Source of the DNA: a virus
Taxonomy: Duplodnaviria; Heunggongvirae; Uroviricota; Caudoviricetes
Length of the DNA: 64,000 nucleotides
IMG/VR virus record: IMGVR_UViG_2974578326_000001
Location: 26,711 to 90,710 of that record
Reading direction: 5' to 3' (one strand)
Shown here: positions 12,910 through 47,480 of the stretch, in pieces
Numbering within the stretch: position 1 is the stretch's first letter
Layout: every line of letters starts with the position of its first letter
Notes under the pieces: generated by a model
Databases searched by the model: none
What the model saw: only the letters and a program-made list of their open reading frames with translations
Told to the model about the DNA's origin: nothing
Made by a program: the position numbers and the translations under genes

Positions 12910-13422
12910 TTATTTCCTATAAATATTAACATCATAAGAGTCTTCAAAAATCGTTTTAATATTCTTTTCAACTTCTTTCCAATTACCACCAGCTAAACCG
13001 CAACCGATTAATGGAAAACCAATCTTATAACCAATATTAGCTAAACCTCTGTCATCCAGTTCGTTTGCCATTCTAACAAGTCCTACAGTCAAGTATGATA
13101 ACTGGGTTCCATAATCTTCATGCCAATATCTATAATCTAGTTGACCGTAAATATTGAATACAAACTTATTCTTTTCTTTTTCAAAGAAAGAACAATGTCC
13201 AAGTCGATCTTTACCTTTTTCTTTTGAATATTCAGAATCAGATTTAAAAGCCTCTGGAATATCCCTCTTTAGTTGTTTAGCAAAACCAGAACCCATCACA
13301 TTATAGCAATTCGCTTGGTGTGCAATACAATCTACCTCACCGTCTATAAAGGCTTTTATTAGATCACCTTTTATATATTTAATCATACTACACCACCAAA
13401 TGATCTTCCTATGTTTCCGCAC
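12910..13422 (-). CDS. macro domain (ADP-ribose binding/processing) protein
   Basis: IKGDLIKA..VDCIAHQANCYNVMGSGFAKQ and GFPLIGCGLAGG match macro-domain signature. Confidence 0.7.
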   Translation of the reverse strand: MRKHRKIIWWCSMIKYIKGDLIKAFIDGEVDCIAHQANCYNVMGSGFAKQLKRDIPEAFKSDSEYSKEKGKDRLGHCSFFEKEKNKFVFNIYGQLDYRYWHEDYGTQLSYLTVGLVRMANELDDRGLANIGYKIGFPLIGCGLAGGNWKEVEKNIKTIFEDSYDVNIYRK

Positions 13423-13688
13423 AGATTGAACTCTCTAACTTCATACATATATTTACACTCGTCTTTAATCATTTCATCTATGAACGATAATGCAGTGTAT
13501 ACTGTTGGAAACAATTCCACAGTACCACTTTTATTAAAACTACAAAGTGTAAGTGGATCTTCACTCTTTACAACGATGTACCTAATCACACGAACCTCCA
13601 CTGTCACTTGACCCGCTATCATAACTAGAGTAATTATCATCAGTACTAGTTGAGTCAGAGTGATGCCTTGTGAAAGGTTCGTCATCAA
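13383..13688 (-). CDS. hypothetical protein
   Basis: 101-aa ORF. Confidence 0.3.
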   Translation of the reverse strand: MMTNLSQGITLTQLVLMIITLVMIAGQVTVEVRVIRYIVVKSEDPLTLCSFNKSGTVELFPTVYTALSFIDEMIKDECKYMYEVREFNLCGNIGRSFGGVV

Positions 13689-13839
13689 TCAAACCAGTTG
13701 ATAACATCTTATTTATCTGTCCACCAAATCCAGAATGATACTCTGAGAGGGCGTCTCTTCGACGCCTCCTTAACTGTTCTTCATTAGTTATATTTCTTTT
13801 CATTTCAAATAACCTATAAACTAGTGGGTATCCAACCAA
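13582..13839 (-). CDS. hypothetical Ser/Asp-rich protein
   Basis: 85 aa, low-complexity tail. Confidence 0.3.
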   Translation of the reverse strand: MVGYPLVYRLFEMKRNITNEEQLRRRRRDALSEYHSGFGGQINKMLSTGLIDDEPFTRHHSDSTSTDDNYSSYDSGSSDSGGSCD

Positions 13840-15659
13840 CTTCCACCTAACATAGAATCAGATGCTAGTGGGCATTCCATATTTAAATAAACCCCAGCTC
13901 TCGCCACACAAGAGTCGATGTTCTTCCTTAACTGATCAACATCTTCCCATTTAACTGTGAACTGGAATTCGTCGTGCATCATGATGACCTGATTAGCATC
14001 TAGATTATCACGATCATTCCAACCATGTAAGAAGCACATAGCCACTTTCATTGTAATAGAACCAGCCGCCTGTAGTAAAGTATTAAGAGCTTTGTGAGCC
14101 ATTACGTTTCCGTTAGAATCACGTCTCATAATTAACTTTCTACCATCAATTGCAGGAACATAACCATTAGCTTTAGCAAAATCTTGAACCCAATCAATAA
14201 GAACAGGGATACAAGGACACTCTCTTAGGAAAGTTTCTCTTAGTTTTGCACCTTCCTCTTTACCGCCTCCTAATTGACCACCTAGATTTGCATCACCTGC
14301 TCCATATAGGAATGCGTAGATAAACGTTTTAGCTGATTTCCGTGTAGGCAGACCTGCAAGACGCTGATTGTGGCTATGGATGTCACCTGTAAGTAATACT
14401 TCTCTGTACTCAAGTGCCGAATCAAGTGCTTTTTGATAGTAAATAATCTTATCTTTGTTACCTGATTTAGTGGCTTCCTCTAATAGCATCTTAGATACAG
14501 CAATTAAGTAATGTGTTAACATCCTTAATTCTAAACCAGCACCATCACCACCAACGAATGCATCATGGTTTTTTCTAACTAATACAGAACATCTATGTAA
14601 TTCATCATCCCATTTGTTCTTTTTACTGTCAAATTCAACATAATAGTTTGTATATCCTACACGTTTGAACTTACCAGTTTTAACCATTTCATCAGTTAAT
14701 TTCTTAACTACATGGGCAGATGCACCTTCTCTTCTGTTACCAATAAACAGACTACGACATTCTTCACCAAAAGGAGCACCAGCTGCTGGAATATTGACAA
14801 TTATCTTATGTCTCATCCTGGCTGTTGGTGTTGCACATGGGTTAGCCTCTCCAGATAATTTACCATCAGGTCTAACGTTCTCTATCAAACCAATAATAAG
14901 AGATCTTCTATGTGCCCAAACCATACGTTCTTTCAGTAATGTTAAAGCCCTTGAATCCTCTTCATCCAGAGAATCAAAAGAATCTTCTGTTATCTTAGGA
15001 GAAGTAGGCCAATCAGTTGTTAACAGTAGTTTTTTCTTTATTTGATCAAAAGTAGGTGTACGTCTCATATCAAAACCAAGAGCATATAAAATAGCTCTCA
15101 TATAATTTTTTGACTTACCTCTAAAATTTGAATCAATAAATGACATAACTTCTTCATCATAATACTTAGCTTCTTCATAAGTACAATGATCTCTAAGAAA
15201 TGTCCTATAAGAACAACTATTTAGTTTGTTTTTATATTTCCATGGATTAAAATCTTTTCTTTTGGTATTCCATTCAGTTGGAATCCAACCAAGATCTAAC
15301 ATTACAGATTTAACCCTTGCAGATTTAGACGGATCAAAAGGAGTAAACCATACACCAGAGAAAGGCCCACCAATGACATCCTCTGATAAATTGTGATTGT
15401 CCATATACCTTTGAACAAAAGCTTTCGGTTTCCCATTCATTTTGAAAGGTGCGTTATAAGTACTACCTTTATGCAACATAACGGGTAACATTGGAATTAA
15501 TTCAATATCTATTTTTAATATTTTTTCTGTTAGAACATGAACGAACCATTTTGCCTTTCTTTCATCAAAATTACAACCATGTTTTGCTTGATTACTAATA
15601 ATATATGAAACTTTTTGTTCCAAGAGAAATGGTTCTTTCCAATCACATGTAATATTCAT
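13821..15659 (-). CDS. DNA polymerase, family A polymerase domain only (T7 gp5-like, exo domain absent)
   Basis: motif B RKSAKTFIYAFLYGAG, motif C MMHDEFQF; collinear with T7 gp5 residues ~190-704. Confidence 0.85.
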   Translation of the reverse strand: MNITCDWKEPFLLEQKVSYIISNQAKHGCNFDERKAKWFVHVLTEKILKIDIELIPMLPVMLHKGSTYNAPFKMNGKPKAFVQRYMDNHNLSEDVIGGPFSGVWFTPFDPSKSARVKSVMLDLGWIPTEWNTKRKDFNPWKYKNKLNSCSYRTFLRDHCTYEEAKYYDEEVMSFIDSNFRGKSKNYMRAILYALGFDMRRTPTFDQIKKKLLLTTDWPTSPKITEDSFDSLDEEDSRALTLLKERMVWAHRRSLIIGLIENVRPDGKLSGEANPCATPTARMRHKIIVNIPAAGAPFGEECRSLFIGNRREGASAHVVKKLTDEMVKTGKFKRVGYTNYYVEFDSKKNKWDDELHRCSVLVRKNHDAFVGGDGAGLELRMLTHYLIAVSKMLLEEATKSGNKDKIIYYQKALDSALEYREVLLTGDIHSHNQRLAGLPTRKSAKTFIYAFLYGAGDANLGGQLGGGKEEGAKLRETFLRECPCIPVLIDWVQDFAKANGYVPAIDGRKLIMRRDSNGNVMAHKALNTLLQAAGSITMKVAMCFLHGWNDRDNLDANQVIMMHDEFQFTVKWEDVDQLRKNIDSCVARAGVYLNMECPLASDSMLGGSWLDTH

Positions 15660-15744
15660 TATCTTCTCCTAAGTCGTACACCTGAATTAACAGTTTAGGC
15701 ATCCAGCCACATTAAGTCGTACTTGTATGTAGTATTTAAACATA

Positions 15745-15930
15745 TTAACTTCTATAGTATTTGCATTTTTGTATTTGATCAGAGTTTAATCTATTTACGC
15801 ATTTATCACAATATGGGAAATATCCATCTGGGGAGTTCCCACTAGTTTTAAAACTTGTAGATTTTAACTTCATCTCATTACAATTTTTACATCTTTTAAA
15901 TCTAAAACTGTTTAACATAAATGACCCCAT
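15745..15930 (-). CDS. small zinc-finger protein
   Basis: CKNC ... CDKC. Confidence 0.4.
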   Translation of the reverse strand: MGSFMLNSFRFKRCKNCNEMKLKSTSFKTSGNSPDGYFPYCDKCVNRLNSDQIQKCKYYRS

Positions 15931-16178
15931 TTAATCAGTTTATTACTTACATAATCACGAACCATAATATTAGTTTTACGGGTCATTTGTAATGTTTGTG
16001 TTAAACCTAAAACTTTAGAAAGTCGATAACCAATAGTGCCATATTTTTGATTATCTCCTGATAAAATTGCCTCTAAATAATCTGGCAATTCAGTATCCAG
16101 AACAGTAATTATTTGAGTATCTACATAATCACCATCTGTTGTATAATCTCTACTATAAATTGTAACTAATTTAGACAT
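15912..16178 (-). CDS. hypothetical protein
   Basis: 88-aa ORF. Confidence 0.35.
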   Translation of the reverse strand: MSKLVTIYSRDYTTDGDYVDTQIITVLDTELPDYLEAILSGDNQKYGTIGYRLSKVLGLTQTLQMTRKTNIMVRDYVSNKLIKWGHLC

Positions 16179-16193
16179 ATTATATTCCCTTAT

Positions 16194-16415
16194 TTAAAAT
16201 GGTTCTGATACTGTTACATCTTCGTAATAGAACTCCCGATCATCACGAGTTATGTCATTTTCTCCACTGAATCTCCACCTTATTGCTTCTTCTATTGCTT
16301 TTTCTTTTGAATCTGATTTTACTGATAAAGTTGTCGTCCCTCTAACATATCCAGAGAAAGGGATTCTTACCATAAAGTTTTTCATATTAAAAATCATCCA
16401 TAACATAAATTTCAA
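16194..16415 (-). CDS. hypothetical protein
   Basis: 73-aa ORF. Confidence 0.35.
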   Translation of the reverse strand: MKFMLWMIFNMKNFMVRIPFSGYVRGTTTLSVKSDSKEKAIEEAIRWRFSGENDITRDDREFYYEDVTVSEPF

Positions 16416-16632
16416 CAGCTTCTGGATTGTCAGAGAATAATTTATTCATAACTAAATCCAATTTATCTCCATATTTCTGATCATTATAGATAATACAATA
16501 TCCTGTCCCATCTTCTCCGTGGATTCCATGATTTGATAGAAGATCACATGTTTCATTCCAACCAACACCAATCTCTTCACCAATCTTCGATAAATCAGAG
16601 TTTAACATTACATACTCTTTCTTAATAATCAT
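16387..16632 (-). CDS. hypothetical protein
   Basis: 81-aa ORF. Confidence 0.35.
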   Translation of the reverse strand: MIIKKEYVMLNSDLSKIGEEIGVGWNETCDLLSNHGIHGEDGTGYCIIYNDQKYGDKLDLVMNKLFSDNPEAVEIYVMDDF

Positions 16633-16859
16633 TAAGATCTTACCTCTCGTGTCATCATCATGTGATCTAATGTTGCAAATGCGTTTTCAACATCTTTTTT
16701 AAATACTTGATCTTTTGATAAAGCTATGATACCTTTACCATCAAATCGGATTATAAGCTTATCATACTCAATGTAATATGATCCAACAGTATTTAAATCA
16801 ATACTAACGAAAGCTCCAAGTTTTACACGATTTACAATATTATTTGACATAATTTTCAA
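16632..16859 (-). CDS. hypothetical protein
   Basis: 75-aa ORF. Confidence 0.35.
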   Translation of the reverse strand: MKIMSNNIVNRVKLGAFVSIDLNTVGSYYIEYDKLIIRFDGKGIIALSKDQVFKKDVENAFATLDHMMMTREVRS

Positions 16860-17055
16860 CCATCATCTTTTTTAGTTTATTAAAATCATTTTCATCAAAA
16901 ACACTTTCATTTTCAATAGTTTCTGATAAAGCTGGATAGAAGTGCCTGAACATTAAGTACAAAGCATCTCCATTATTTAGAAATTTATAAGTCTTAACTT
17001 CTTTTCTAGCTTCTTTTATCAAGAAGTTAATTTCCCTTTTACTTAAAGTACCCAC
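16840..17055 (-). CDS. hypothetical protein
   Basis: 71-aa ORF. Confidence 0.35.
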   Translation of the reverse strand: MGTLSKREINFLIKEARKEVKTYKFLNNGDALYLMFRHFYPALSETIENESVFDENDFNKLKKMMVENYVK

Positions 17056-17536
17056 TGTTACCTCTGATAAATTCTAACAAATCTTTACGAGACATTTCAT
17101 CCAAATCAACAGGGCTTACAAGTTCAAACCCATTAAATTTCTTTGATTCCTTTTTACCTTGGACATCATTATCTCCAATCAAGAAGTATTTTACATTATC
17201 CTTATTCGGCAATAAGTCTTTAACATGTTTTGGGAGGTTTACACCAAGTGCAGCAATAGCTACAAAACCAATATTATGGAGTGCTACTGCTTTAAACACA
17301 GACTCTGCTATGAAGCATATACCATTATATCCAACAGGAACTGTCTCCCATCCCCAAAAAGCATAAGATGTGGAGTGTGTAATGTATTTTCTTTTACTTG
17401 TTGGTTTATAAGATTGCTCACCTAGAAATCTGCCAGTGTTAGGGCAATATAAGGGCACAGTAAGTGTGTCATCAGACATCCAGCAATGGTATTCATCTGG
17501 ATTAAATCCACGAGAAATTAGGTGCTCTTTAAACAT
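17039..17536 (-). CDS. TOPRIM-domain protein (primase-related)
   Basis: conserved Glu (ICFIAESVF) and DxD (LIGDNDVQG) of TOPRIM fold, like the T7 gp4 RNA-polymerase domain. Confidence 0.4.
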   Translation of the reverse strand: MFKEHLISRGFNPDEYHCWMSDDTLTVPLYCPNTGRFLGEQSYKPTSKRKYITHSTSYAFWGWETVPVGYNGICFIAESVFKAVALHNIGFVAIAALGVNLPKHVKDLLPNKDNVKYFLIGDNDVQGKKESKKFNGFELVSPVDLDEMSRKDLLEFIRGNSGYFK

Positions 17537-17841
17537 AATTTATACCTTTTATTAGAAATAGAAGATTGTATAATATTTCTTATACTCTGATTATTAACCC
17601 TTTTGATATAAAACTCCAAAGATTGTAGCTTTATCTCTCTATCTTCGAAGAATAGTATAATATTTAATACATCTTTTACCTCTGGATATAACACCTTTAC
17701 ATTTCTAAACCTATCGAGAACCTTTATAGATCTATTGTGATTTTCAAATATCATATCAAATATTGATCTTAATAGTTCTTGTTCTTGTAGAGACAGTTTT
17801 CTATTATACATCATAATCAATCTTACATCCACAATATCCAC
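17518..17841 (-). CDS. hypothetical protein
   Basis: 107-aa ORF. Confidence 0.35.
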   Translation of the reverse strand: MDIVDVRLIMMYNRKLSLQEQELLRSIFDMIFENHNRSIKVLDRFRNVKVLYPEVKDVLNIILFFEDREIKLQSLEFYIKRVNNQSIRNIIQSSISNKRYKLCLKST

Positions 17842-18208
17842 TGTTAATTATATCATTAACAAATCTAGTAGGGAGTACTTTAAAGTTATTAAAGATCTTT
17901 GATTTATCTTTATTATTTTTAAAATTATTCAAATCAACGTAGAAATCACTAAGATTATCTTTAAAGATATACTCTTCTCCGCAAAAAACTCCCTCAAAAT
18001 TCGGTAGATATTTTTTATCATAACAAAATACATCATTATCAAGATCAAGAACGTCCTCAGAGTGTGTCATAAAGAAGCACCACCTATAAAACAAAGGTAA
18101 GCTTTCGTCAGAGATGATATCATCAAAGGATTTTCTAATCGTTTCTCGAATAGTCAATAATTCTTTCTCTTTATTCTTTAATAATTCTATCAACAAATCT
18201 AGTTTCAA
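17804..18208 (-). CDS. hypothetical protein
   Basis: 134-aa ORF. Confidence 0.35.
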   Translation of the reverse strand: MKLDLLIELLKNKEKELLTIRETIRKSFDDIISDESLPLFYRWCFFMTHSEDVLDLDNDVFCYDKKYLPNFEGVFCGEEYIFKDNLSDFYVDLNNFKNNKDKSKIFNNFKVLPTRFVNDIINSGYCGCKIDYDV

Positions 18209-18250
18209 AGTATGTTCCTTAGATATAAGAAAGGGAAGCCGAAGCCTCCC

Positions 18251-18619
18251 TTATTTTTTCTTAGGTTTAGAAGTTGGTAATCTCTCACGTTTTTTCTTAT
18301 TAGCTTTACGAGCTCCAGAAGCTTTTCCTTTTGAAGATCCTATTTTACCACCATGAGACATGTTTTTACTGGCATCAATAGTTCTTAAATTAGAAAGTTT
18401 ATTCTGAGACTCACTAATAGAAGTTTTCAATGGTTTTTTGTGGTCAACATGAACTGATGTTGGAAGTTTACGACCTATAGACTTCTCTACTGCTCTTCGG
18501 GCTCGATGTCTCATAGCATCTTTAGATTTCTTACCAACTGAAGTCTCACCACGTTTAATAGCGGTTAAACGCTCTTGTTGATAGTTTCTAACCTAAACAT
18601 AGCCTGGTGAACTCGGCAT
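18251..18619 (-). pseudogene. HNH endonuclease-like ORF with in-frame TAG after codon 8 (MPSSPGYV-stop-120 aa)
   Basis: ATG at 18619 encodes the same octapeptide as the neighbouring HNH gene; TAG at 18593-18595 in frame; downstream frame has HVDHKKP..N..N HNH motif. Confidence 0.4.
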
Positions 18620-18628
18620 ATGACCTCC

Positions 18629-19207
18629 TTAGCCTTTTAGGCAGTTAACGATTGATCTACACCATTCATACAGTTCACTCATAGTCAGTGTTGTTTTCAT
18701 CACGTTAGTGACGGCACAGACTAGCTGTATGTTACCTTCTTCATACGGTTTAGATGAATCAATCCTGTCAATTGATAAATTAGTATGTACTTTATCGCTT
18801 TTTGGTATTTTGATGAAAGTCATCTCTTTACCACTTAAAGCACATAGACCTTTTTGAGAGTCATATAGACTGAGTATGTACTCTAATGTTAAGTTCTCTC
18901 TTTCTTTCTTTTTTAATAGTAAAGAAATGTAAGCCTCTTTATTACCATTAAGATATTTATATGATCTCTCAACTTGAGCTAAAGAGTGGCAATGTTGATC
19001 ACCGCACATCCTCTGAGTATTTGATTGTTTCGGAACTGTTTTATTACAATAAGGACAAGTCACTGTATCTTTTCTATTTGCCCTGACGAATTTAGCACCA
19101 CAGCTTCTACTACAAAATCTTGTAACCTTCTTTTTGGATTGGAAATCAGATCCACAGTACTCACAGGTTTTGTTATGTAATCTGACATAACCTGGACTAC
19201 TAGGCAT
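18629..19207 (-). CDS. HNH homing endonuclease
   Basis: 192 aa; N-terminal Cys pairs, C-terminal GLCALSG..SIDRIDSSKPYEEGNIQLVC..N His-Me finger motif. Confidence 0.6.
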   Translation of the reverse strand: MPSSPGYVRLHNKTCEYCGSDFQSKKKVTRFCSRSCGAKFVRANRKDTVTCPYCNKTVPKQSNTQRMCGDQHCHSLAQVERSYKYLNGNKEAYISLLLKKKERENLTLEYILSLYDSQKGLCALSGKEMTFIKIPKSDKVHTNLSIDRIDSSKPYEEGNIQLVCAVTNVMKTTLTMSELYEWCRSIVNCLKG

Positions 19208-19535
19208 CTTTACCTCCTAACCCTCTTAGGGTGTCCCTGTGAGACCTATAAGCTATATACTCTCTAGCTACTGGAAAAAGATTATTCTCCATCAGAGTAT
19301 ATTCTACAACTTCATGCATTTCAGGAATTGTTATTGATTCATCATGAATAACTTTATCCTGAACTTGTAAAGATACTTGCAGTGCTTGGTCAAAATCAGA
19401 CTTTCCTATTTTCTCTTGTGCAGATAGAATAGCATTTACTATTTTGTTGATATCAAAAGGTTGATTACTTCCATCTCTTTTAATTACTACAACCATCTTG
19501 ATCTCCTTAGATACTAGATCTAACAAAATATGCAT
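19200..19535 (-). CDS. stand-alone ATP-cone domain protein (NrdD N-terminus-like)
   Basis: VIKRDGSNQPFDINKI and AREYIAYRSHRD match the ATP-cone of E. coli NrdD; 111 aa, no catalytic domain. Confidence 0.65.
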   Translation of the reverse strand: MHILLDLVSKEIKMVVVIKRDGSNQPFDINKIVNAILSAQEKIGKSDFDQALQVSLQVQDKVIHDESITIPEMHEVVEYTLMENNLFPVAREYIAYRSHRDTLRGLGGKDA

Positions 19536-19971
19536 ATTTACTTAGTTCAGCACAACAGTTTTCTAACAAACTTTTTGTTATAGGATCTGTTTCATCTGAA
19601 TTCAAATAGGCAATAGTTCTTTCACAAATTGCCTCAAGAGAGTTTAACAAATCTTGTTTCATCTCACCAGCAGATGAATCATGTTTACCCTCTGCAAACC
19701 AAGAATCTTCAATGTATTTGCTTGCCCTTCCGTCAACACACATTTGTAAAGCTCGCATACGTTCAGCGATTTCATCGGAACATCGAATTGCTTGTTTCTG
19801 CAAATCATCAAACATTTCATGTAAACCAGGGAATTCAGGCCCAGTTACATTCCAGTGATAATTTTTAGATTTGACATGCAGTAGTGTACAATTACCAACA
19901 AACTCTTGAAGGAAGTTTGAATTGGATTCACGTCTTAGTGATGGTCTTGAACGAATCATATCTCTAGCCAT
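19507..19971 (-). CDS. Dps-family ferritin-like protein
   Basis: 154 aa; ferroxidase-centre signature HWNVTGPEFPGLHEMFDD..AERMRALQ. Confidence 0.7.
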   Translation of the reverse strand: MARDMIRSRPSLRRESNSNFLQEFVGNCTLLHVKSKNYHWNVTGPEFPGLHEMFDDLQKQAIRCSDEIAERMRALQMCVDGRASKYIEDSWFAEGKHDSSAGEMKQDLLNSLEAICERTIAYLNSDETDPITKSLLENCCAELSKYAYFVRSSI

Positions 19972-20255
19972 TATTTAATCTCCTTATTTCTAGTTGCCTC
20001 TAAATCCATGTTAACACCAACATTTCCCTCAATGTTAGCCCTAATCTGATCTGTAATAACAATCATATTAGTGGGTTTTGCTAGTGTTGTTCGATTTTCA
20101 TCAATAACATTAATTCTGACTTTCATAGGAGTTGAGTCAATGACAGATCCAATCTTCATTTTCTGATTATACTTACCATTACTCCAAACTACATAATCAC
20201 CATATTTTAGGACACGATTTAACATGTCCCTGTGTAAATAACCTAAAAGTGCCAT
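19971..20255 (-). CDS. hypothetical protein
   Basis: 94-aa ORF. Confidence 0.35.
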   Translation of the reverse strand: MALLGYLHRDMLNRVLKYGDYVVWSNGKYNQKMKIGSVIDSTPMKVRINVIDENRTTLAKPTNMIVITDQIRANIEGNVGVNMDLEATRNKEIK

Positions 20256-20271
20256 CCTTGGCCTCCTTATC

Positions 20272-20529
20272 TTACAAACCTACAAATTTGGATAATTCAT
20301 CCCTTGTCATAACACCAGATTTCATACCCTTAGCTAGTCCATCAACTGTAAAGATAAATGTTGGTACTGCCCTGATACCTAACTCACTAGCTTTCTTTAA
20401 CCCTTCATCAGAGTCAATTGCTACCTCTTCTAATTTGATATCTGTACCCTCAAGTACATCTTCAACAACAGGAGCCATAGCTTTGCAAGGAGAACAATTG
20501 GTGCTGTAAAATTTAATAAGTTTTTTCAA
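20272..20529 (-). CDS. thioredoxin
   Basis: 85 aa; active site CSPC, cis-Pro motif AVPTFIF. Confidence 0.8.
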   Translation of the reverse strand: MKKLIKFYSTNCSPCKAMAPVVEDVLEGTDIKLEEVAIDSDEGLKKASELGIRAVPTFIFTVDGLAKGMKSGVMTRDELSKFVGL

Positions 20530-20540
20530 AATTATACCCT

Positions 20541-20575
20541 CAATAAAACCCCCGAAGGGGTAATTTTTAAATTAA
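20541..20575 (-). terminator. hairpin with UUCG-type tetraloop between dcd and thioredoxin (terminator/attenuator)
   Basis: ACCCC-CGAA-GGGGT stem-loop (20548-20561) with T-runs on both sides. Confidence 0.45.
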
Positions 20576-21181
20576 TTCAGTAGTGTGACCAGTGCCTGTG
20601 AAAGCTTTAGTAGCACCTTTTTGCCCATTGTAGTTACCCTTAACTGCATAACTATCTTTATCATCTACAGGCTCATGCTCAAAGAATACCATTTGTCCAA
20701 TTCTCATATTTGGTTTTAATAGTAAACGATGGTATTTTAATTCATTTTTAAATTCCATGGTAAGTTGTGCTCCGTGCCAACCAGCATCACACCAACCTGC
20801 CAGCATATGTTGTAAACCACAACGAGCCACAGAAGATCGTAACTTAAACTCACATGAAATATTATTTGGTAAATTGAAAGTCTCAATAGTGTGTGCTAAG
20901 AAGAAATCACCTGGGTGAATAATTAAACCCTCTTCTGGAATCTCAACTTCTTTGAATTCTGGGGATTTTTTATTATCCATATCAATTGGATCTAATCGAA
21001 TTGAATCTTTGTATAGAGTCATACCAGTAGTGGTAACAGCTTCAATAACTTCTGGTGATTCAATTAAAATCTTATTACCAATTCTGATATCTAAAGATGA
21101 ACTATTTACGTTTTCGTGTAAACCATCAATTACACCATCATCAATTAGTTTATGTATTTGTTTTGAAGATAATAATGACAT
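20567..21181 (-). CDS. dcd: dCTP deaminase / dUTPase-fold enzyme
   Basis: 204 aa; AGWCDAGWHGAQLTMEFKN matches Dcd catalytic motif. Confidence 0.7.
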   Translation of the reverse strand: MSLLSSKQIHKLIDDGVIDGLHENVNSSSLDIRIGNKILIESPEVIEAVTTTGMTLYKDSIRLDPIDMDNKKSPEFKEVEIPEEGLIIHPGDFFLAHTIETFNLPNNISCEFKLRSSVARCGLQHMLAGWCDAGWHGAQLTMEFKNELKYHRLLLKPNMRIGQMVFFEHEPVDDKDSYAVKGNYNGQKGATKAFTGTGHTTELI

Positions 21182-21250
21182 TAAAAATTCCTTTATAGTA
21201 ATGTTGACATAATATATTAGTGTTAATAATAGGATACCCTTACAGATATC

Positions 21251-21769
21251 CTACTTAAACATATCTTCGATCATCTGATAATCGAAAATACTTCTAGGTG
21301 GATCTTTTGGATCGAAACCTGCTAATTCACAAAGATGTAAATATAACCTCTCAGTTACCTCAACATCTCGTTCACAATAAACAAACATTTCTTCGTCAAA
21401 CACTTCCCATTGCTCTGGGTTATCTTTGCCGTACTCCATTTTATTAATACCCAGAACCTTCCCCCAAGAATCGAGGGAGTGTCCTTGGATTCTATCAGGC
21501 TCTAACATCCTAGATAGAACTAGGGTATCAAAAATTGGAGGTGGATTAAAACTTGGATTCAGTTTCTTTATTGCAGAGAAGTCATAATCGATACCATTAT
21601 GTAAAACTGCCAAATCATAATTTGACAAATCGTCACAGTAGTCAGAGAATTGGTCAGGTCTATAACCTTTCCTCTCCCCTGAAAGTGGATCAATAATCCA
21701 AGCGCAATGAAACTTATCAACCGTATTGAACAATCCGTTTGCTTCAATATCAGTCACAGCAATTCTCAT
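21251..21769 (-). CDS. 3'-5' proofreading exonuclease (DnaQ/DEDD), equivalent to the N-terminal domain of T7 gp5
   Basis: IAVTDIEANGLFNTVDKFHC nearly identical in pattern to the T7 gp5 N-terminus; Exo II/III motifs LHNGIDYD, YCERDVEV. Confidence 0.8.
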   Translation of the reverse strand: MRIAVTDIEANGLFNTVDKFHCAWIIDPLSGERKGYRPDQFSDYCDDLSNYDLAVLHNGIDYDFSAIKKLNPSFNPPPIFDTLVLSRMLEPDRIQGHSLDSWGKVLGINKMEYGKDNPEQWEVFDEEMFVYCERDVEVTERLYLHLCELAGFDPKDPPRSIFDYQMIEDMFK

Positions 21770-21778
21770 ACATACTCC

Positions 21779-23590
21779 TTAGAAAGGTTTTGATGAAGGA
21801 TCACCATCAGGTGAGTAACCACTATCACTCTCTGATTCATATCCAGGTAGTTCAAATGGATGCTCTGGGTCGTACTCATCGTCAGTTCGTTGTCTTAATC
21901 TTCCAGTAACAGGGTTATATATAGTTGGTATAACACCTGTTTGACCAAAGTTACGCTCTTTCAATAGCCTGATTTGTGATAAGTTTTTACAATCACCTTC
22001 ACCTTGCTTATTTCTCTCAAAACCAAGAATAACTTGAGAGAATCTCATAAGAGCACGAGATCCAGTAAATTGAACCTCTTGAACCTGACCGCCTTCTTCA
22101 TGTGGAGCACCACCTTTTGGTGGATTTAAATGACTGAAAACATAAGCTGTGAAGTTTAATTCATTACACATTCCAGATAATTCAACACCAATTCTAGCGA
22201 CCTCTGTATTAATCTCAGTGGCTGTTAGATGAGAGACTAATGCTGTGATATTATCTAAGAAAATAAATTTAACACCGTGCTCTACAACCCAGAACCTGAT
22301 ACATCTCTTAATATCTTCCCAGTCGTTTTGACCATAATTTCGATATAAGAAAAGATTTCCATCATATTTCAAGATTTCAGATTTTAATAAATCAGGATCA
22401 AATTCAACGTCTGGTCTATGGAAAGGCACATTAGCAGATTTACCAGCAATATTTTTTAATGTATTGCCAGTAGTTTCTTCTAACATAAACACACCAACTT
22501 TCTGGTGATATTTATTAATCAACCAAGCAGTTAATTCATGTGCTAATAGTGTCTTACCACCACCCACTCCACCACCAACTGCAATCATCTCTCCATATCT
22601 AATACCATAGGTGAGCTCTGTTAACCCCTTCCAAGGGTAATCCATACCCCATTCAGGCTTCTTCAGAGCATCCTCTAGACATTCAGAGACTGTAGCAGAA
22701 CCAGCTGGAGATTCTTTGGCTGCATTGAATCTTAAGAGATTATTAAGTTCAACACCACGACCCTCCATTAACATATCGTTTGCATCTTTCATAGGACTGC
22801 CATCTTTCTTTTTACCTTTCGGTATTCTAGCAATCTTAATTCCTGGATACATTGCACGAGCTGCTGTTACTGCCTCTTCTCCTGCTTCATCATTATCCAT
22901 ACAGATAACAATTTCATCAAAAGAGTCTAAATATTTCCTACGTCTTGAAAAAGTTGTAGCAATAGATTTTGAACCATTAGGAAGAGCTACACAAGCTGGT
23001 TTGTATGTTGTTTTACCACTACTAACCAATACTTGAAAACCAGACATAGCAGATAACTCATCTTCAAAGATGAATAATTTACGACTGTATACATCACCTA
23101 ATATTGATTGGCTTTCGCCAAAGAAATCACACTCTCTACCATTTCCTATAGAGTAGAAATCTTTTGGATCTAAGTTCCTAATCTTGTATGCAGTGATTAC
23201 ACCGTCTTTTTCTTTAGGGTAAAAATGAGAGATTACCTCTCTGTTTGTTGCTGATAAGCCAACTCTAACCCCATATCGTTCCGCTACAGATTTATTAATA
23301 CCCCTAGAGGTCAGTTCCATTATCGGAAGCTCCTCTACCTCTGAAAGAACCTCTTTGAGTTCTTCAGGGGATAATTCAACCTGGACTTTTCTAATTTTCT
23401 CGAACTCTTCTTTATTTGATTCGGTGATCTCTTCATAGTGACCACATCTGTTACATGTTGCCCACTCCTCACCATTATCTTCATTTCTCATATGAATCAA
23501 ATGGTTGCCTGTCTTATCGTGACCCCTAGAACGGCAAGTAGGACAGGCACTATCACCTAAAATTATTTTATTTCCGTATGGTTTTGACAT
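21779..23590 (-). CDS. bifunctional primase-helicase (T7 gp4-like)
   Basis: N-terminal zinc ribbon CPTC..CNRC, TOPRIM, DnaB-like helicase with Walker A GGGVGGGKT, acidic C-terminal tail ending F. Confidence 0.85.
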   Translation of the reverse strand: MSKPYGNKIILGDSACPTCRSRGHDKTGNHLIHMRNEDNGEEWATCNRCGHYEEITESNKEEFEKIRKVQVELSPEELKEVLSEVEELPIMELTSRGINKSVAERYGVRVGLSATNREVISHFYPKEKDGVITAYKIRNLDPKDFYSIGNGRECDFFGESQSILGDVYSRKLFIFEDELSAMSGFQVLVSSGKTTYKPACVALPNGSKSIATTFSRRRKYLDSFDEIVICMDNDEAGEEAVTAARAMYPGIKIARIPKGKKKDGSPMKDANDMLMEGRGVELNNLLRFNAAKESPAGSATVSECLEDALKKPEWGMDYPWKGLTELTYGIRYGEMIAVGGGVGGGKTLLAHELTAWLINKYHQKVGVFMLEETTGNTLKNIAGKSANVPFHRPDVEFDPDLLKSEILKYDGNLFLYRNYGQNDWEDIKRCIRFWVVEHGVKFIFLDNITALVSHLTATEINTEVARIGVELSGMCNELNFTAYVFSHLNPPKGGAPHEEGGQVQEVQFTGSRALMRFSQVILGFERNKQGEGDCKNLSQIRLLKERNFGQTGVIPTIYNPVTGRLRQRTDDEYDPEHPFELPGYESESDSGYSPDGDPSSKPF

Positions 23591-23611
23591 TATTTCTTCC
23601 CTGAGATTTAA

Positions 23612-23977
23612 TTAGAGGGTGAAAGGCACCCCGCCACCTGTATAAACTTCTTCTTCTTCGATATCAAAATCCAAGTCTAATCCTAAGTCTTTGGTATATT
23701 GGTATCTATTGATTATTTCTTGAGCTTCTTCTTTAGTGTCGAAGAGTCCAGATTTTGATCTAACTCCGCCTAAAATAAATACTGGAGAATATTTGATTAA
23801 AAGTTCTATTTTTGATAGATTGTCTTCCTTGATCCGAAGTGGTGGAGCTCCGTCCAGCCATGACACTAAAACTAAACCTTTCTTGTCAAGTGTTTTTAAT
23901 ACAACACCCCTCGTACAATAACTTAGTAGATTATTATTTGAAACAACTACTGAATCACCAGTTTTAAATAAAGACAT
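23612..23977 (-). CDS. hypothetical protein
   Basis: 121-aa ORF. Confidence 0.4.
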   Translation of the reverse strand: MSLFKTGDSVVVSNNNLLSYCTRGVVLKTLDKKGLVLVSWLDGAPPLRIKEDNLSKIELLIKYSPVFILGGVRSKSGLFDTKEEAQEIINRYQYTKDLGLDLDFDIEEEEVYTGGGVPFTL

Positions 23978-24007
23978 TTCTCACCCTCTGTATTATATTC
24001 TCAGTTA

Positions 24008-39730: not shown

Positions 39731-40659
39731 TTTTTATACTCCTTATAAATGTTTTTAGCTAAATCGAGGAAAATATCAATAGTAATTTGTTTTGATGATA
39801 TTTCATCTGGTATTAATAATTCCCCATTTTTCTCATCACTTAAAAAAGTATGAGTTAAAGTGAAATTTTCCTTGTTACGATCGAACAGGTCAGTATATTC
39901 TCTGTCGTAGTAACCAAACCTTCCGTAACCATTTTCCGTATCACCCCAATTGCCTTGGTAGATTTGTTTAAAATCACCAGTACACATGTTTTTGAAATCT
40001 TCTAATGTGGCTTCATAGTGCGGCAAAATAGTAGAATCATAGTCAACAATATTTACATATGTTTCCCCAGAGTAATCTTTACACATATAAAACATCTGAG
40101 ATAACATAAAAGAGAAATGCCAATCAAAACCTTTATTGATAAGCAGGTTGAATACAAATCCTATATCATAATCATTGAGGATGTTTCGAATCATCATAGC
40201 TGGCAACAATGTTTTCTGCATGTTTAAGCCTTTAGTTTTTATTTTAAAACCATTGACTTCCATCATTACACTTTCATTATCTATGTGACACTCTTCTTCT
40301 TCATATTCTGGTACAATAAAGGTTCCAAACTCTATATGGTCAAACATCCCATTGTTCATTGGATTCTCTAGAACTTCACTGATTAATTTATCTAAGAATT
40401 TCTTTTGATCCATATCACCACGTATCTGTTTTACAATATATAAATCTGATGAAAACCTGTCACTTGGGTAATATATTACATGATCGAGATTATCTGAAAA
40501 TATGTTATCTAATGAAACATCTTCCCAATCTTCATTTTCAACAACACAATCTAATTCAGACAACATACCAAAGCATGGTACATCTTCTCGGAACATCCAC
40601 CCGTTATCACCTACTAATGTTAGATACATCTTAATCCTCTGTCTCTTCACCAATACCAC
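39715..40659 (-). CDS. hypothetical protein
   Basis: 314-aa ORF. Confidence 0.4.
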   Translation of the reverse strand: MVLVKRQRIKMYLTLVGDNGWMFREDVPCFGMLSELDCVVENEDWEDVSLDNIFSDNLDHVIYYPSDRFSSDLYIVKQIRGDMDQKKFLDKLISEVLENPMNNGMFDHIEFGTFIVPEYEEEECHIDNESVMMEVNGFKIKTKGLNMQKTLLPAMMIRNILNDYDIGFVFNLLINKGFDWHFSFMLSQMFYMCKDYSGETYVNIVDYDSTILPHYEATLEDFKNMCTGDFKQIYQGNWGDTENGYGRFGYYDREYTDLFDRNKENFTLTHTFLSDEKNGELLIPDEISSKQITIDIFLDLAKNIYKEYKKWSIA

Positions 40660-40900
40660 GTAGCTGACTTACATACACTTGTTTACCATCTTTTCCAGTA
40701 ACAGTGCATTGCCCAGTTAAAACTCGGAAAGTTGTATCTCGGCTTAGGTCATATTGAGCTAGAACACAATCTTTAAACTGTATTCCTCTGAAGTAACCGA
40801 GAATAATAACAAATACCAAAAAGATAAGAAGCGCTAAATAACGCTTCTTGAAGTATTTATTTGATAATTGATTATATTTGTCTTTAATAATATTAATCAT
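40631..40900 (-). CDS. small single-pass membrane protein
   Basis: 89 aa, one TM helix (LALLIFLVFVIILGYF). Confidence 0.4.
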   Translation of the reverse strand: MINIIKDKYNQLSNKYFKKRYLALLIFLVFVIILGYFRGIQFKDCVLAQYDLSRDTTFRVLTGQCTVTGKDGKQVYVSQLRGIGEETED

Positions 40901-41289
40901 TTTTGTTCAGCCTTTAATTCTTCAAACATTTTATCTAAATTGCGGACATGTTCTTCGGTGTCGTTAATAAAATGTTTAATTTGAGCTTGTCGGAATTTAA
41001 TTTCACCTAAAGCTAATAGCGATTCAGCATAAGAGTCAGCAAACATTCGACGTGAAAATTCTAACGCACGGTTGCAACCCTTTCCTTTGTTGTCAATTTG
41101 GTTTTGTCGAATCTGCTTTTTGATGTCAGTTAATACCGATGAAAGTTGGATTCGAACAATACGAGCTGCTGCCATTTCACGATTAGTATTCTTTAAATCT
41201 TTTCGAGCTTGGTCTAAATTAGCACCAATTGCTTTTAAAGAAAATTCAACAGAAGATAACTTAGTTGTTTTAGCAGTTGCTTTAGTCAT
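40897..41289 (-). CDS. hypothetical coiled-coil protein
   Basis: 130-aa ORF. Confidence 0.4.
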   Translation of the reverse strand: MTKATAKTTKLSSVEFSLKAIGANLDQARKDLKNTNREMAAARIVRIQLSSVLTDIKKQIRQNQIDNKGKGCNRALEFSRRMFADSYAESLLALGEIKFRQAQIKHFINDTEEHVRNLDKMFEELKAEQK

Positions 41290-41350
41290 GATTAAATACC
41301 TTTTAATAAACGATTAATTAAGTGAGTTTCTTTTAAGAAGTTTACAAATA

Positions 41351-41560
41351 TTATTTAGAAGAAATAATCTCTTCACCAGTGATAGCTTTTACTGCTGTAA
41401 GTGCTTTTTCTGCACTTGACTGTTCTTGTTTCATTGTCTTTAATTCTTTTTCAGCAGTTGTGATATTCTCTTTATTTTCAGATAAAAACAAAACAAGATC
41501 ATCACGAACTTTTGTGAATGAAGAAAGGATAGAAGATAGTGATTTTTTAGATGAGAACAT
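41351..41560 (-). CDS. hypothetical coiled-coil protein
   Basis: 69-aa ORF. Confidence 0.35.
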   Translation of the reverse strand: MFSSKKSLSSILSSFTKVRDDLVLFLSENKENITTAEKELKTMKQEQSSAEKALTAVKAITGEEIISSK

Positions 41561-41571
41561 TTTAATACCTC

Positions 41572-41994
41572 TTATTTAATAAAATAGTGATCTTTGTATT
41601 TATGAATATCTTTTCCTTGTGCCCAGTATGGTTTACTATTCCCACTGTAAAAGAATTTATATTCGTACTTTGGTTTATACCCAGGTTTTAGAGTCATTAG
41701 TGCAACTCTTCCTGCCGTTTGGAAGTTTTCTAGCTCACCGTAGTGCTTCAATCTTCCTTTCTCAAGAGTTTTATAATACTCCAAGAATCCTTTCTCATCT
41801 CTGGTCTTTAATACAGTTGACCATGAAAACTGATTCTTTTGAAGTAGTACACCCATTACATTATCTGGGAATCTAGGATCTTCAACCCTATTGTGAACTA
41901 CATCAGCTACTCTGTGCATTCCATCAAACCCTTGATTTCCTGCTTCCATGTAGGTGTTCATTGTTAATGCTAACCAGCATACTAAGAATTTCAA
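41572..41994 (-). CDS. SleB-like cell-wall hydrolase (Hydrolase_2) with signal peptide
   Basis: N-terminal signal sequence; EAGNQGFDGMHRVADVVHNRVEDPRFPDNV..QFSW matches SleB domain. Confidence 0.6.
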   Translation of the reverse strand: MKFLVCWLALTMNTYMEAGNQGFDGMHRVADVVHNRVEDPRFPDNVMGVLLQKNQFSWSTVLKTRDEKGFLEYYKTLEKGRLKHYGELENFQTAGRVALMTLKPGYKPKYEYKFFYSGNSKPYWAQGKDIHKYKDHYFIK

Positions 41995-42054
41995 AACATA
42001 TAACTCCTTTTAATTAATATCACAAGAAGCCTAATAGACTTCTTAGGTTATTAA

Positions 42055-42393
42055 CTAATATCTACGGAGTATTATATCAACACCATATTTATTCTTAAAT
42101 GAATCTTTAGCAGAGTACATATTTGTAACTGCTGAAGAATTATGTGAGTGTATGTAAATTGTTTTAAGTCTGATTAATACATCTCTATGAAGAAGTTCTT
42201 CAATTATGTACAATGCATCCTTTCCCTCAAAACCTTCTATACCTAAATCATTATCTAGTGAAACTGTAACTATTTCTTTAGAATGGTTATGTATGCAATT
42301 GAAAAAAGATTTTCTATCATTCGCCCAGTATGTTTTACCTGTGCATAACACATACTCAGGTGGTTTTCTGATATCATCAAGCCAAAGAAACAT
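42055..42393 (-). CDS. cyclic-phosphate processing receiver (CPR) domain protein
   Basis: MFLWLDDIRKPP ... VSLDNDLG ... IHSHN pattern of CPR family found with RNA-repair genes. Confidence 0.55.
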   Translation of the reverse strand: MFLWLDDIRKPPEYVLCTGKTYWANDRKSFFNCIHNHSKEIVTVSLDNDLGIEGFEGKDALYIIEELLHRDVLIRLKTIYIHSHNSSAVTNMYSAKDSFKNKYGVDIILRRY

Positions 42394-42448
42394 AAATCCT
42401 CCAGTAAATTTAAGATAAGGTACACACTAGGTATACCTTAGATTTAAA

Positions 42449-42664
42449 TCAACTAACAATTTTATACTTAGTGTTTCTTGTTTTAAGTATCAAATCACCA
42501 TCTTCATCAGTTGTTAATGATTCAACTCTTGATGTAAGAACAGGGGTTCCATCCTTGAATGGATGATTCCCGTGTGTTGATGTATCATTCTTAATGAATC
42601 CAGACACAACCCTTTCTTCAATAAAGAATGTTTCGATTTTTAATTCAGCATCATACTTACTCAT
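42449..42664 (-). CDS. hypothetical protein
   Basis: 71-aa ORF. Confidence 0.35.
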   Translation of the reverse strand: MSKYDAELKIETFFIEERVVSGFIKNDTSTHGNHPFKDGTPVLTSRVESLTTDEDGDLILKTRNTKYKIVS

Positions 42665-42674
42665 AAGTACCTAC

Positions 42675-43613
42675 TCAGTTTTTACTTCGCATATCCATGA
42701 TCATTTGACCATCATAAGATGCACCAACAACTGTTTGTGGTACATCACCTTTATATGCTTTAGCACGTAGCATTTCAACATCCAATTGCTTCCATTTAAG
42801 CATCTCAGGTGTGATTGTTTGCTGTAAAGCTTTATTGGCTTCAGCTTCTTTCTGTGCTGCATATAACCGAGCATCCGCATCACGTTCATTAGCTTGGGCA
42901 TCATTGTTACGAGCTTCACGTTCAGCTTCTGCCTGTTTAACTTTCTGTTGTGCGACAGCTTCTGCTTTTTTCAGATTTGCAAGTTCAGCATTAACTTGTT
43001 CTTCACGTACTTTTGTGTTAGTGACCTGAGTCATGATTACTTCAGGAAGAGTAATATCTTGCAAGAAGACCTGCTTAACAGTGTAACCATAAGGTCGTGC
43101 ATATTCTTCAACTTCCTGTTGAATTGCAATCTGCAACTCATTCTGGATTTTGGAGTCAAACAAATCTTGTGCTTTAGGAACAGATTTACCGAATTCTCGG
43201 ATTGTACTTAACAATTTCTCTGTTACATATCGATCAAGTGCTTGATCTTGATTACCTGCGTTGACTTTGTTTACAGGTGCTTTATTACCATCAAACTGCA
43301 ACATAACAGTAATGTCAACAGTGGATTTAAACTTATCTTGAGATGGAACTTGAAGGGCTTCAAACTTCATTGCAATATCTTTAGTGCTAAATGTATCATA
43401 GCTTGCAATTGGGTTTACAAAGTGGAAACCTGGTGTAATAATGTTTGGATTAACCTTACCTAGGAATGTCTGAGTAACAACAGATCCATCCTGAACAACA
43501 ATGTAAGAGTTAAGACCAACAATAAGAACACCCAAGCCAATAGCTAAACCAGCCAAGTATTTCTTTGGTTTTTCCATTACTTTTTCAATAAAATTCATAT
43601 TTTCTTTTTTCAC
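42675..43613 (-). CDS. SPFH/band-7 (prohibitin/HflK-like) membrane-anchored protein
   Basis: N-terminal TM helix, SPFH core, C-terminal Ala/Glu-rich coiled coil. Confidence 0.6.
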   Translation of the reverse strand: MKKENMNFIEKVMEKPKKYLAGLAIGLGVLIVGLNSYIVVQDGSVVTQTFLGKVNPNIITPGFHFVNPIASYDTFSTKDIAMKFEALQVPSQDKFKSTVDITVMLQFDGNKAPVNKVNAGNQDQALDRYVTEKLLSTIREFGKSVPKAQDLFDSKIQNELQIAIQQEVEEYARPYGYTVKQVFLQDITLPEVIMTQVTNTKVREEQVNAELANLKKAEAVAQQKVKQAEAEREARNNDAQANERDADARLYAAQKEAEANKALQQTITPEMLKWKQLDVEMLRAKAYKGDVPQTVVGASYDGQMIMDMRSKN

Positions 43614-43652
43614 AATTAAGCCTTATTAAGGGGGTTATCTCCCCCATTGTAT

Positions 43653-44900: not shown

Positions 44901-44904
44901 TTTG

Positions 44905-46032: not shown

Positions 46033-46244
46033 TATAAATCTTTTATGATTAGTTCTGAAGATTTCAGTTCTACACGATCTTCTGGTTTAAAATAAGCAGG
46101 TTTCATATCTGTCATTGATATGGCATTGATTGTATGGTTTATAATAATTTTCAAATAAACCTTTTCCTTGAATAGGAAGACATCACCATATCTTAATACA
46201 GTGAATTCTTTTAATTGTTTATCTTTGTCAAATTTAATTTTCAT
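46032..46244 (-). CDS. small protein, GD-x-F family member
   Basis: paralog of 46241-46474, 56879-57112, 57114-57362. Confidence 0.4.
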   Translation of the reverse strand: MKIKFDKDKQLKEFTVLRYGDVFLFKEKVYLKIIINHTINAISMTDMKPAYFKPEDRVELKSSELIIKDL

Positions 46245-46474
46245 CTTATCACCTGTACTATTGTCTTCACTTTTTCCACATGTGTATCCGTTGGGTGGAA
46301 CATTGCTAATCTATTTTCAGATAAGTTAACTGAATTGATATTATCTTCTACAACGTCCTTTATTTTTAAATAAATATTACCTTTAAACTGAAAAGTATCA
46401 CCAAAATTTAAATCACAAAACTTTACAAACTTCCGACCTTTCTCAGTTATTTCAATATTCATTTTAGACCTCAT
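46241..46474 (-). CDS. small protein, GD-x-F family member
   Basis: FCDLNFGDTFQFKGNIYLKI pattern shared with paralogs. Confidence 0.4.
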   Translation of the reverse strand: MRSKMNIEITEKGRKFVKFCDLNFGDTFQFKGNIYLKIKDVVEDNINSVNLSENRLAMFHPTDTHVEKVKTIVQVIR

Positions 46475-47016: not shown

Positions 47017-47148
47017 AACTAATAACCTTATTTAATTTGTGGAGAATGATGGATTCCAACCATCCACCCCACCTTGGGTAGCGAACTATCGGATGTTTGA
47101 TAGACATACGCCCAAGGTAGAGTTGCCGCATGCATCCCCATAGAATAT

Positions 47149-47224: not shown

Positions 47225-47228
47225 TAAT

Positions 47229-47305: not shown

Positions 47306-47314
47306 ATTTTATTA

Positions 47315-47479: not shown

Positions 47480-47480
47480 A

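Follow-up and report, generated by a model that had tools for sequence, protein, structure and literature searches.

Why does a phage whose DNA polymerase resembles that of T7 encode the proofreading exonuclease and the polymerase domain in two genes separated by 5,591 nt, and did the genes that now lie between them cause the separation? The question is raised by a 64,000-nt stretch of phage DNA (the window; positions 26,711 to 90,710 of IMG/VR record IMGVR_UViG_2974578326_000001, Caudoviricetes), in which the region 13821-21769 matches Proteus phage Privateer at 100% identity (MT028297/NC_048861, record positions 40531-48479). The closest relatives of Privateer are Cronobacter phage vB_CsaP_009 (hereafter 009) and Proteus phages P59, 3H10_20, J3S and YP1. 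The first-pass annotation of the window had proposed that a contiguous gene similar to T7 gp5 was divided here by mobile HNH cassettes and morons. The split itself is real, and has already been published and annotated, but this causal account is wrong. We conclude with high confidence that the replicative polymerase of Privateer is a T7 gp5-type family A enzyme produced as two polypeptides, as the result of an old and fixed fission in which the genes of the gap had no causal role. A candidate recoding and homing cassette within the gap is, plausibly, the new lead offered by this region.

Two ORFs corresponding to the halves of T7 gp5

The exonuclease (exo) open reading frame (ORF; 21251-21769) had significant PDB matches only to chains of T7 gp5 (E 1.3e-14; query residues 4-144 to gp5 residues 2-177/184), and BLASTP placed its residues 5-142 on gp5 residues 3-181 (E 2e-22). 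The best solved-structure match of the polymerase (pol) ORF (13821-15659) was likewise T7 gp5 (E 1.7e-34), with residues 93-133 aligned to gp5 residues 319-359 and residues 205-612 to gp5 residues 340-704 (BLASTP). When concatenated exo and pol pairs were placed in a multiple alignment together with fused enzymes, gp5 residue 200 marked the end of the exo ORF and residue 201 the start of the pol ORF, i.e., the two ORFs are collinear and non-overlapping. The same junction is seen in the DNA polymerase family phrog_17, which is matched by both ORFs at contiguous profile positions (670-827 for exo and 834-1233 for pol). The first-pass annotation, which had recognized the N-terminus of gp5 in 21251-21769 and had the pol ORF begin where the exonuclease domain ends, was therefore correct on both points.

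The exo ORF has the motifs that define a DEDDy exonuclease (Exo I DxE, Exo II Nx2-3[FY]D and Exo III Yx3D). Their residues, D7 and E9 in Exo I, N58 and D63 in Exo II, and Y131 and D135 in Exo III, are intact and are invariant, or nearly so, among 18 sequences including T7, and the accompanying Pfam matches (RNase_H_2 and DNA_pol_A_exo1) are weak. The pol ORF is assigned to family A by PF00476 (E 2e-25), by T7 gp5 as the top fold match and by the conservation, in a 65-row alignment, of motif A (D372) in addition to the previously noticed motif B (R440/K444/Y448) and motif C (H562-D563-E564). No Exo motifs were found in the pol ORF, and a same-chain N-terminal exonuclease domain is absent from it, so that the reading of a split enzyme survives. 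Neither the exo nor the pol end carries extra sequence, which rules out a split intein or trans-splicing at these ends.

Age of the split and the genes between the halves

The two-gene split is old, fixed, conserved and previously described. Separate genes for the polymerase and its proofreading exonuclease were reported for all LUZ24-group phages and for phiEco32 (phage tf paper, 2012, PMC3517423), the two-gene polymerase of phiEco32 being credited there to Savalia et al. (2008, cited via PMC3517423). The RefSeq names of the Privateer genes are "DNA polymerase exonuclease subunit" and "DNA polymerase I", with reference to EXO74 and DPOL of phiEco32. The break lies at gp5 residue ~195-205 in four diverged lineages, represented by Privateer, a 90-kb relative (IMG/VR locus L009), Kuravirus 172-1 and the LUZ24-like phage Ab22, and the order helicase-exo-gap-pol is common to Privateervirus, Lahexavirus, Kuravirus/phiEco32 and the LUZ24-like phages. 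Thus, Kuravirus 172-1 has primase/helicase, exo, 9.0 kb and pol, and Ab22 has helicase, exo, 1.9 kb and pol, the gap measuring 1.9 kb in Ab22, 4.5-5.6 kb in Privateervirus, 6.7 kb in L009 and 8-9 kb in Kuravirus. Helicase and exo genes adjoin each other in loci L002, L004 and L008-L017.

The fused and split versions were surveyed among related phages. Among 15 IMG/VR loci retrieved with the exo protein, all close relatives have a helicase adjoining exo and a distant pol, and all are split. Four T7-like loci (L018-L021; 30-39% exo identity) have one fused ORF. The exo ORF is intact in every relative examined and always co-occurs with an exo-less pol. The best 120 clusters of pol homologues (99-39% identity) all comprise proteins of at most 618 aa, and for this reason they lack the exonuclease domain. 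Among the best 150 clusters of exo homologues, the top 12 are all stand-alone proteins (108-196 aa), while overall 61 are shorter than 260 aa and 66 have at least 500 aa; in an exo-domain tree of 150 representatives, 17 of the 18 members of the Privateer clade are stand-alone.

An alternative origin of the exo ORF, as a DnaQ-like nuclease that was acquired independently and was never a polymerase domain, is very unlikely. Stand-alone DnaQ-type exonucleases are common, and the weak Pfam matches would suit such an origin. Against it stand the PDB relatives, limited to N-termini of T7 gp5, and the contiguity with pol within the polymerase PHROG, as well as the constant co-occurrence with an exo-less pol. 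In addition, the exo similarity ranking (Kuravirus first, then LUZ24-like phages about level with T7-like ones) roughly parallels that of pol.

The genes within and around the gap, all on the minus strand, are as follows:

21779-23590, minus strand: T7 gp4-like primase/helicase (Pfam DnaB_C and Toprim), directly upstream of the exo gene here and in all split-polymerase relatives examined
21251-21769, minus strand: stand-alone 3'-5' proofreading exonuclease subunit (DEDDy), gp072, 172 aa, equivalent to T7 gp5 residues 1-200
20567-21181, minus strand: dCTP deaminase (PF22769, E 1e-34), a conserved gap gene with matching placement in Kuravirus, L008-L011 and L015
20272-20529, minus strand: thioredoxin, gp070, 85 aa, with a CSPC active site (PF00085, E 5e-15)
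19971-20255, minus strand: conserved ORF94 (phrog_10984, E 1e-34), syntenic in Kuravirus and other relatives
19507-19971, minus strand: Dps/ferritin-like protein (PF00210, 1e-11; phrog_3636; synteny)
19200-19535, minus strand: stand-alone ATP-cone protein, 111 aa (PF03477, E 3e-20), annotated as "ribonucleotide reductase"
18629-19207, minus strand: predicted HNH homing endonuclease ORF, 192 aa (PHROG HNH/endonuclease VII families, 6e-15 to 4e-11)
18590-19183, minus strand: in-frame homing cassette, 594 nt, delimited by comparison with the HNH-less P59, 3H10_20 and J3S and by direct reading of the sequence
18590-18598, minus strand: GTT-TAG-GTT, candidate take-off/landing pair, an in-frame stop between matched Val codons
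18251-18619, minus strand: small basic HNH-motif gene (120 aa when intact), a core gene, with TAG at codon 9
17804-18208, minus strand: DUF7020 protein (PF22885, E 3e-25)
17039-17536, minus strand: Toprim/primase-fragment gene, 165 aa (PF13155, 1.5e-4; phrog_849, 2e-24)
13821-15659, minus strand: exo-less family A DNA polymerase subunit, gp055, 612 aa, equivalent to T7 gp5 residues 201-704

The dCTP deaminase, thioredoxin, Dps, ATP-cone and Toprim genes that the first-pass annotation had listed were confirmed by Pfam and PHROG matches. The two HNH genes of that list are reduced to one: 18629-19207 belongs to the HNH/endonuclease VII families, and 18251-18514 is the tail of a conserved gene and not a mobile cassette. 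The ATP-cone gene adjoins Dps in Privateervirus, Lahexavirus and L008/L009, and the Toprim fragment, additional to the gp4-like primase/helicase, occurs in Privateervirus only among the loci compared. Two terminator-like GC hairpins with TTCG loops were noted on the minus strand, one at 20537-20561, which closely follows the dCTP deaminase gene and precedes a TATAAT, and one at 18231-18252, close behind the small gene.

A recent fission, in which HNH cassettes and morons pulled a contiguous gp5-like gene apart at this locus, is even less likely than a DnaQ-like origin. One genuine homing HNH gene does lie within the gap, and mobile elements do enter pol in relatives, as judged from an insertion in motif B of YP1 and from the 20 of the 120 closest pol clusters that end in this motif. 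However, the split is identical in P59, 3H10_20 and J3S, which have no HNH gene, and it recurs in distant genera, with a gap core (dCTP deaminase, ORF94, Dps, thioredoxin and the small HNH-motif gene, the last also present in Ab22) that is syntenic from Privateervirus to Kuravirus. The pol insertions lie at motif B and not at the exo/pol junction. The HNH genes are not the cause of the split, because the split is present without them and the mobile HNH sits in another gene. The least probable alternative, an exo ORF that is a decaying remnant beside a polymerase without proofreading, is contradicted by the near invariance of the six Exo I-III positions in diverged stand-alone homologues and by the intact ORF in all relatives.

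An old fission therefore best describes the locus. The break falls in the exo-pol linker (T7 residue ~200) and has been inherited by a large phage group comprising Privateervirus, Lahexavirus, Kuravirus/phiEco32 and LUZ24-like phages, with further exo-less pol homologues in Trabzonvirus and Vibrio Vp_R1. The genes between the halves are mostly replication and nucleotide-metabolism genes of long residence, and not the cause of the split.

Within this group, phiEco32/Kuravirus (UniProt DPOL_BPE32 and EXO74_BPE32) is like Privateer in the two genes, the junction, the helicase-exo adjacency and the gap core, with 46-47% identity for both exo and pol. Its 8-9-kb gap holds nucleotidyltransferase, thymidylate synthase and PhoH genes, whereas the ATP-cone gene, the Toprim fragment and the HNH cassette of Privateer are missing there. 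The LUZ24-like phages (Bruynoghevirus; phage tf, PaP3), in which the products are named "DNA polymerase part I / part II", share the split (junction at gp5 residue ~204/205) and have the small HNH-motif gene directly after exo. They differ from Privateer in the 1.9-kb gap, in a pol of 545 aa (insertion 1 shorter, insertion 3 absent) and, in Ab22, in having no thioredoxin gene.

Mobile insertions were also observed within the pol genes of relatives. In YP1 (PV535314; L024, 786-1579) a 794-nt insertion interrupts motif B (FIYAFL|YGAG); it matches the Rfam group I intron below the gathering score (E 9e-6) and carries an ORF of 192 aa with an HNH motif, which is not related to that of Privateer. 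Given the group I intron signature, the insertion is probably removed by RNA splicing. The 20 truncated clusters are fragments of 437-463 aa whose ends vary slightly within motif B (after KTF, KTFI or KTFIYAFL), e.g., that of Aeromonas phage BUCT695, which suggests, at the sequence level, that motif B is a recurrent hotspot of intron or endonuclease insertion. The pol gene of LUZ24 was also reported to have an intron (PMC3517423).

Proposed assembly of the two subunits, and the phage thioredoxin

The exo subunit (172 aa) and the pol subunit (612 aa; palm, thumb and fingers) would be expected to join non-covalently into a gp5-like holoenzyme, in which the exo subunit would proofread in trans. 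The first-pass annotation had likewise suggested proofreading in trans, and this follows, at the level of prediction, from complementary halves located on separate ORFs. A separate exonuclease has a known parallel in E. coli Pol III, in which the alpha polymerase and the epsilon (DnaQ) DEDD exonuclease are separate, associating polypeptides and epsilon was never a domain of alpha. Pol III belongs to family C and not to family A, and the exo of Privateer is a detached PolA domain.

When exo and pol were modelled in AlphaFold2 as a virtual fusion, using an alignment of 121 rows, the mean predicted local distance difference test score (pLDDT) was 95.4 and the predicted template modelling score (pTM) 0.91, with low confidence only at residues ~160-178, i.e., at the artificial junction. 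The top 27 Foldseek matches of this model were whole chains of T7 gp5 (E 3.5e-37; TM 0.69-0.78 by target). The model is consistent with a gp5-like assembly of exo and pol. A model of the fusion from the single sequence (pLDDT 35) was not usable.

T7 gp5, the closest solved structure, shares with the Privateer enzyme the fold, the domain order and the motif B Tyr (FIY-A/G-FLYG). It is one chain of 704 aa, in contrast to Privateer, in which the exo is separate and the pol has three added, lineage-specific segments and a shorter thumb segment of unrelated sequence. The added segments are all modelled with pLDDT >90: a helical bundle at residues ~133-236, a beta-rich segment at ~307-365 that precedes motif A, and a segment at ~385-412 that follows motif A and extends two helices. 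The third is absent from the pols of LUZ24-like phages. These segments could contact the detached exo or other parts of the replisome.

Several observations weigh against the interpretation given above, either against a single fission or against the joint function of its products. Firstly, the exo tree of 150 representatives requires ~30 changes between fused and stand-alone states, and there may have been several fissions instead of one, or the changes may reflect noise from the tree or from fragments. Secondly, the model was a covalent chain whose alignment included homologues that are fused in nature, and the docking of the two parts is thus partly imposed by homology. Thirdly, given the hairpins described above, exo and pol may be transcribed separately, in which case their stoichiometry is not guaranteed.

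The gap does contain a phage thioredoxin gene, as the first-pass annotation had stated, and coupling of this protein to the polymerase as in T7 was already proposed by the authors of the Privateer study (PMC7881722). Homologues of the gene are present in the gaps of Kuravirus, L008/L009 and L015. In T7 the thioredoxin-binding loop is located in the thumb, where it comprises ~76 aa (T7 residues 262-338). The thumb segment of Privateer pol at this site is ~28 aa shorter and shows no sequence similarity to it; a segment of the same length occurs in Ab22, whose whole genome contains no thioredoxin gene. A comparison of Privateer with Ab22 thus revealed no co-variation of the thioredoxin gene with the thumb segment, and the idea of a processivity factor gains no added support from it. 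An equally plausible role of the thioredoxin is that of reductant for the ribonucleotide reductase of the phage, for which NrdC of T4 provides a precedent.

The HNH cassette and its target gene

The annotated 87-aa ORF 18251-18514 is the tail, from Met34, of a basic protein of 120 aa (MPSSPGYVRNYQQERLTAIKRGET..RHRARR..HVDHKKP..GGK), and its RefSeq counterpart, gp065, starts at this Met34 with no annotated ribosome-binding site (RBS). The gene is intact in P59, 3H10_20, J3S, L009, L010, Kuravirus and LUZ24-like phages, and is uninterrupted in 29 of 30 IMG/VR homologues, the exception being 009. Conservation of the protein is highest at residues 9-42, and the part encoded by 18251-18514 has a weak HNH motif (Pfam E 0.07). 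The protein corresponds to PHROG 4590, with an ERxxAIxRGETGxGxxSxDAxRHxARR motif and a degenerate HNH, and belongs to the core of the replication modules of Privateervirus, Kuravirus and LUZ24-like phages. Its profile had no match among PDB sequences.

A cassette interrupts this gene behind codon 8 in Privateer, 009 and YP1. The 192-aa HNH ORF now starts from the target gene's own RBS, ATG and first 9 codons, which are followed by the HNH body, TAA, a new RBS (GGAGG), an ATG with 8 codons (MPSSPGYV), TAG GTT and the rest of the gene in frame. Of the 24 nt in the 8 cassette-borne codons, 6 are changed relative to the native copy, and every change is synonymous. The uninterrupted target site of the P59 type reads ..CCAGGTTATGTTCGGAACTAT.., to which the Privateer allele adds a TAGGTT insert; the TAG is present in all three genomes with the HNH gene (GTT-TAG-GTT in Privateer and YP1, GTT-TAG-GTA in 009) and in none of the three without it (P59, 3H10_20 and J3S). 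Homologues of the HNH protein elsewhere align from residue 13 only and turn up sporadically in unrelated phages, among them Aeromonas, Streptomyces and crAss-like ones. The family, the sporadic distribution, the presence in three of six Privateervirus genomes and the sharp boundaries are those of a predicted free-standing HNH homing endonuclease, and on this genome comparison the gene has inserted into the small conserved gene within the gap.

Other kinds of insertion were considered. A group I intron around the HNH ORF was rejected, since Intron_gpI gave no hit in 13000-24000 (E<=1) or in 18450-19300 (E<=10) and only ~35 of the 594 nt lie outside the ORF; the YP1 pol insertion served as the positive control of this search (Intron_gpI, E 9e-6). 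An intein was also rejected, as the insertion is in frame but contains the TAA and TAG stops. In phage T2S1-k141_477764 (Zobellviridae; L061, 1444-2245) an HNH gene of 31% identity lies directly upstream of an uninterrupted homologue of the small gene. From such sequence neighbourhoods, the endonuclease family appears to track the small target gene across distant phages.

The retention of TAG raises the question of whether the interrupted gene is still translated in full. We tentatively suggest that the cassette 18590-19183 shields itself by placing in its target gene a TAG followed by a duplicate of the codon before it, and that the ribosome hops over the 6-nt insert; this would be the first natural stop-hop, with Aeromonas phage LAh_9 as the second instance, and we regard it as possible but short of probable. 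The peptidyl-tRNA-Val would leave GUU, pass UAG and re-pair with the next GUU in a one-codon hop. The hop would restore the exact conserved protein of 120 aa, and the insert would disrupt the DNA target of the endonuclease itself, thereby providing self-protection. Removal of TAG and the next Val codon from the Privateer sequence does yield exactly the ancestral protein, and the pattern of take-off codon, stop and matching landing codon, as read from the DNA, recurs in Privateer, YP1, 009 and LAh_9.

LAh_9 (NC_048776; L060, 1459-2030) has an HNH homologue of 42% identity in the same neighbourhood, and its small gene reads ATG CCT AGT TCA CCA AAC TAT GTG CGA TAG CGA GAT.. (MPSSPNYVR-TAG-RDYEQ), with the matched pair CGA-TAG-CGA one codon further on than that of Privateer. 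In the near-isogenic LAh_6, LAh_8 (L010, 11968-12300) and 4_4572 the cassette is absent and the small gene is intact; LAh_9 and LAh_8 share 99.7% identity in the flanks, and the match picks up again precisely at the second CGA. On this evidence from sequence, LAh_9 is an independent second case. Searches for further cases found PGYV-stop-VRNY only in 009 in IMG/VR, with two unrelated chance matches in the JGI metagenomes, and YVR-stop-RDY gave no match in IMG/VR.

The competing explanation requires no recoding: TAG would end an 8-codon leader, followed either by an 87-aa protein started at Met34 or by low-level UAG readthrough with a product longer by 2 aa. This, too, is a serious possibility that falls short of being probable. 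The 87-aa ORF is the one annotated in RefSeq, and the LAh_9 insertion, judged from its flanks, is very recent. Between Privateer and 009, codons 9-33 show 8 synonymous and no non-synonymous changes, but this divergence could predate homing, in HNH-less genomes, because in YP1 the HNH gene is like that of Privateer (99.5%) and the downstream exon like that of 009; this weakens the case for the hop. On the other side, the start at Met34 has no annotated RBS and would delete residues 9-33 and with them 13 of the 34 invariant columns, and a new RBS, an ATG and 8 synonymously recoded codons would be pointless if the peptide stopped at TAG. Readthrough does not need the duplicated codon, yet in two independent lineages identical codons flank TAG, a configuration with a chance rate of 3-4% in this genome for each. 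Nor is a suppressor tRNA encoded: no amber suppressor was found among the four tRNAs of the window (Arg(tct), Met(cat), Arg(cct) and Trp(cca), at 47149-47982 and 63818-63891), and no tRNA is annotated in the remainder of the genome. The landing GTT is followed by AGA, read by the phage tRNA-Arg(tct). No stimulatory RNA structure was detected around TAG (z -0.29).

The stop-hop proposed here has two known counterparts. In the T4 mobA/gene 60 system, ribosomes skip an insert that also prevents self-cleavage (Bonocora, 2011, as summarized in bioRxiv 10.1101/2022.08.31.505936). Like the Privateer cassette, this system combines an HNH homing endonuclease gene, a recoded version of the segment that it targets ("homR") and a short UAG-led insert placed right behind a codon that is repeated at the landing position. 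The T4 insert has 50 nt and that of Privateer 6 nt; the stem-loop signal was not found in Privateer, and the long nascent-peptide signal of gene 60 is impossible there, with take-off after 8-9 codons. The target in T4 is a topoisomerase and in Privateer a small HNH-motif protein, for which the hop is proposed from sequence. By analogy, the Privateer cassette is a candidate miniature analogue of mobA/gene 60. The second counterpart is the synthetic "stop-hop" of E. coli, in which a stop sits between two matching codons and 9 nt yield one amino acid (Weiss et al., 1987, as described in PMC5009743); no natural occurrence was known at the time of the review by Atkins et al. (2016, PMC5009743). GTT-TAG-GTT and CGA-TAG-CGA have the same pattern as these engineered sites and are natural.

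The split polymerase of Privateer and its relatives is a good natural system for studying how a detached proofreading domain finds its polymerase. If the stop-hop is true, short programmed bypassing occurs in nature, and homing endonucleases can use it to break their own DNA target while leaving the host protein unchanged. The cassette would then represent the T4 mobA/gene 60 strategy a second time, in a minimal form of independent origin, and its 9 nt would offer an easily mutated model for the rules of take-off and landing. It would also be a warning for annotation, as "truncated" genes beside homing endonuclease genes may be intact at the level of protein.

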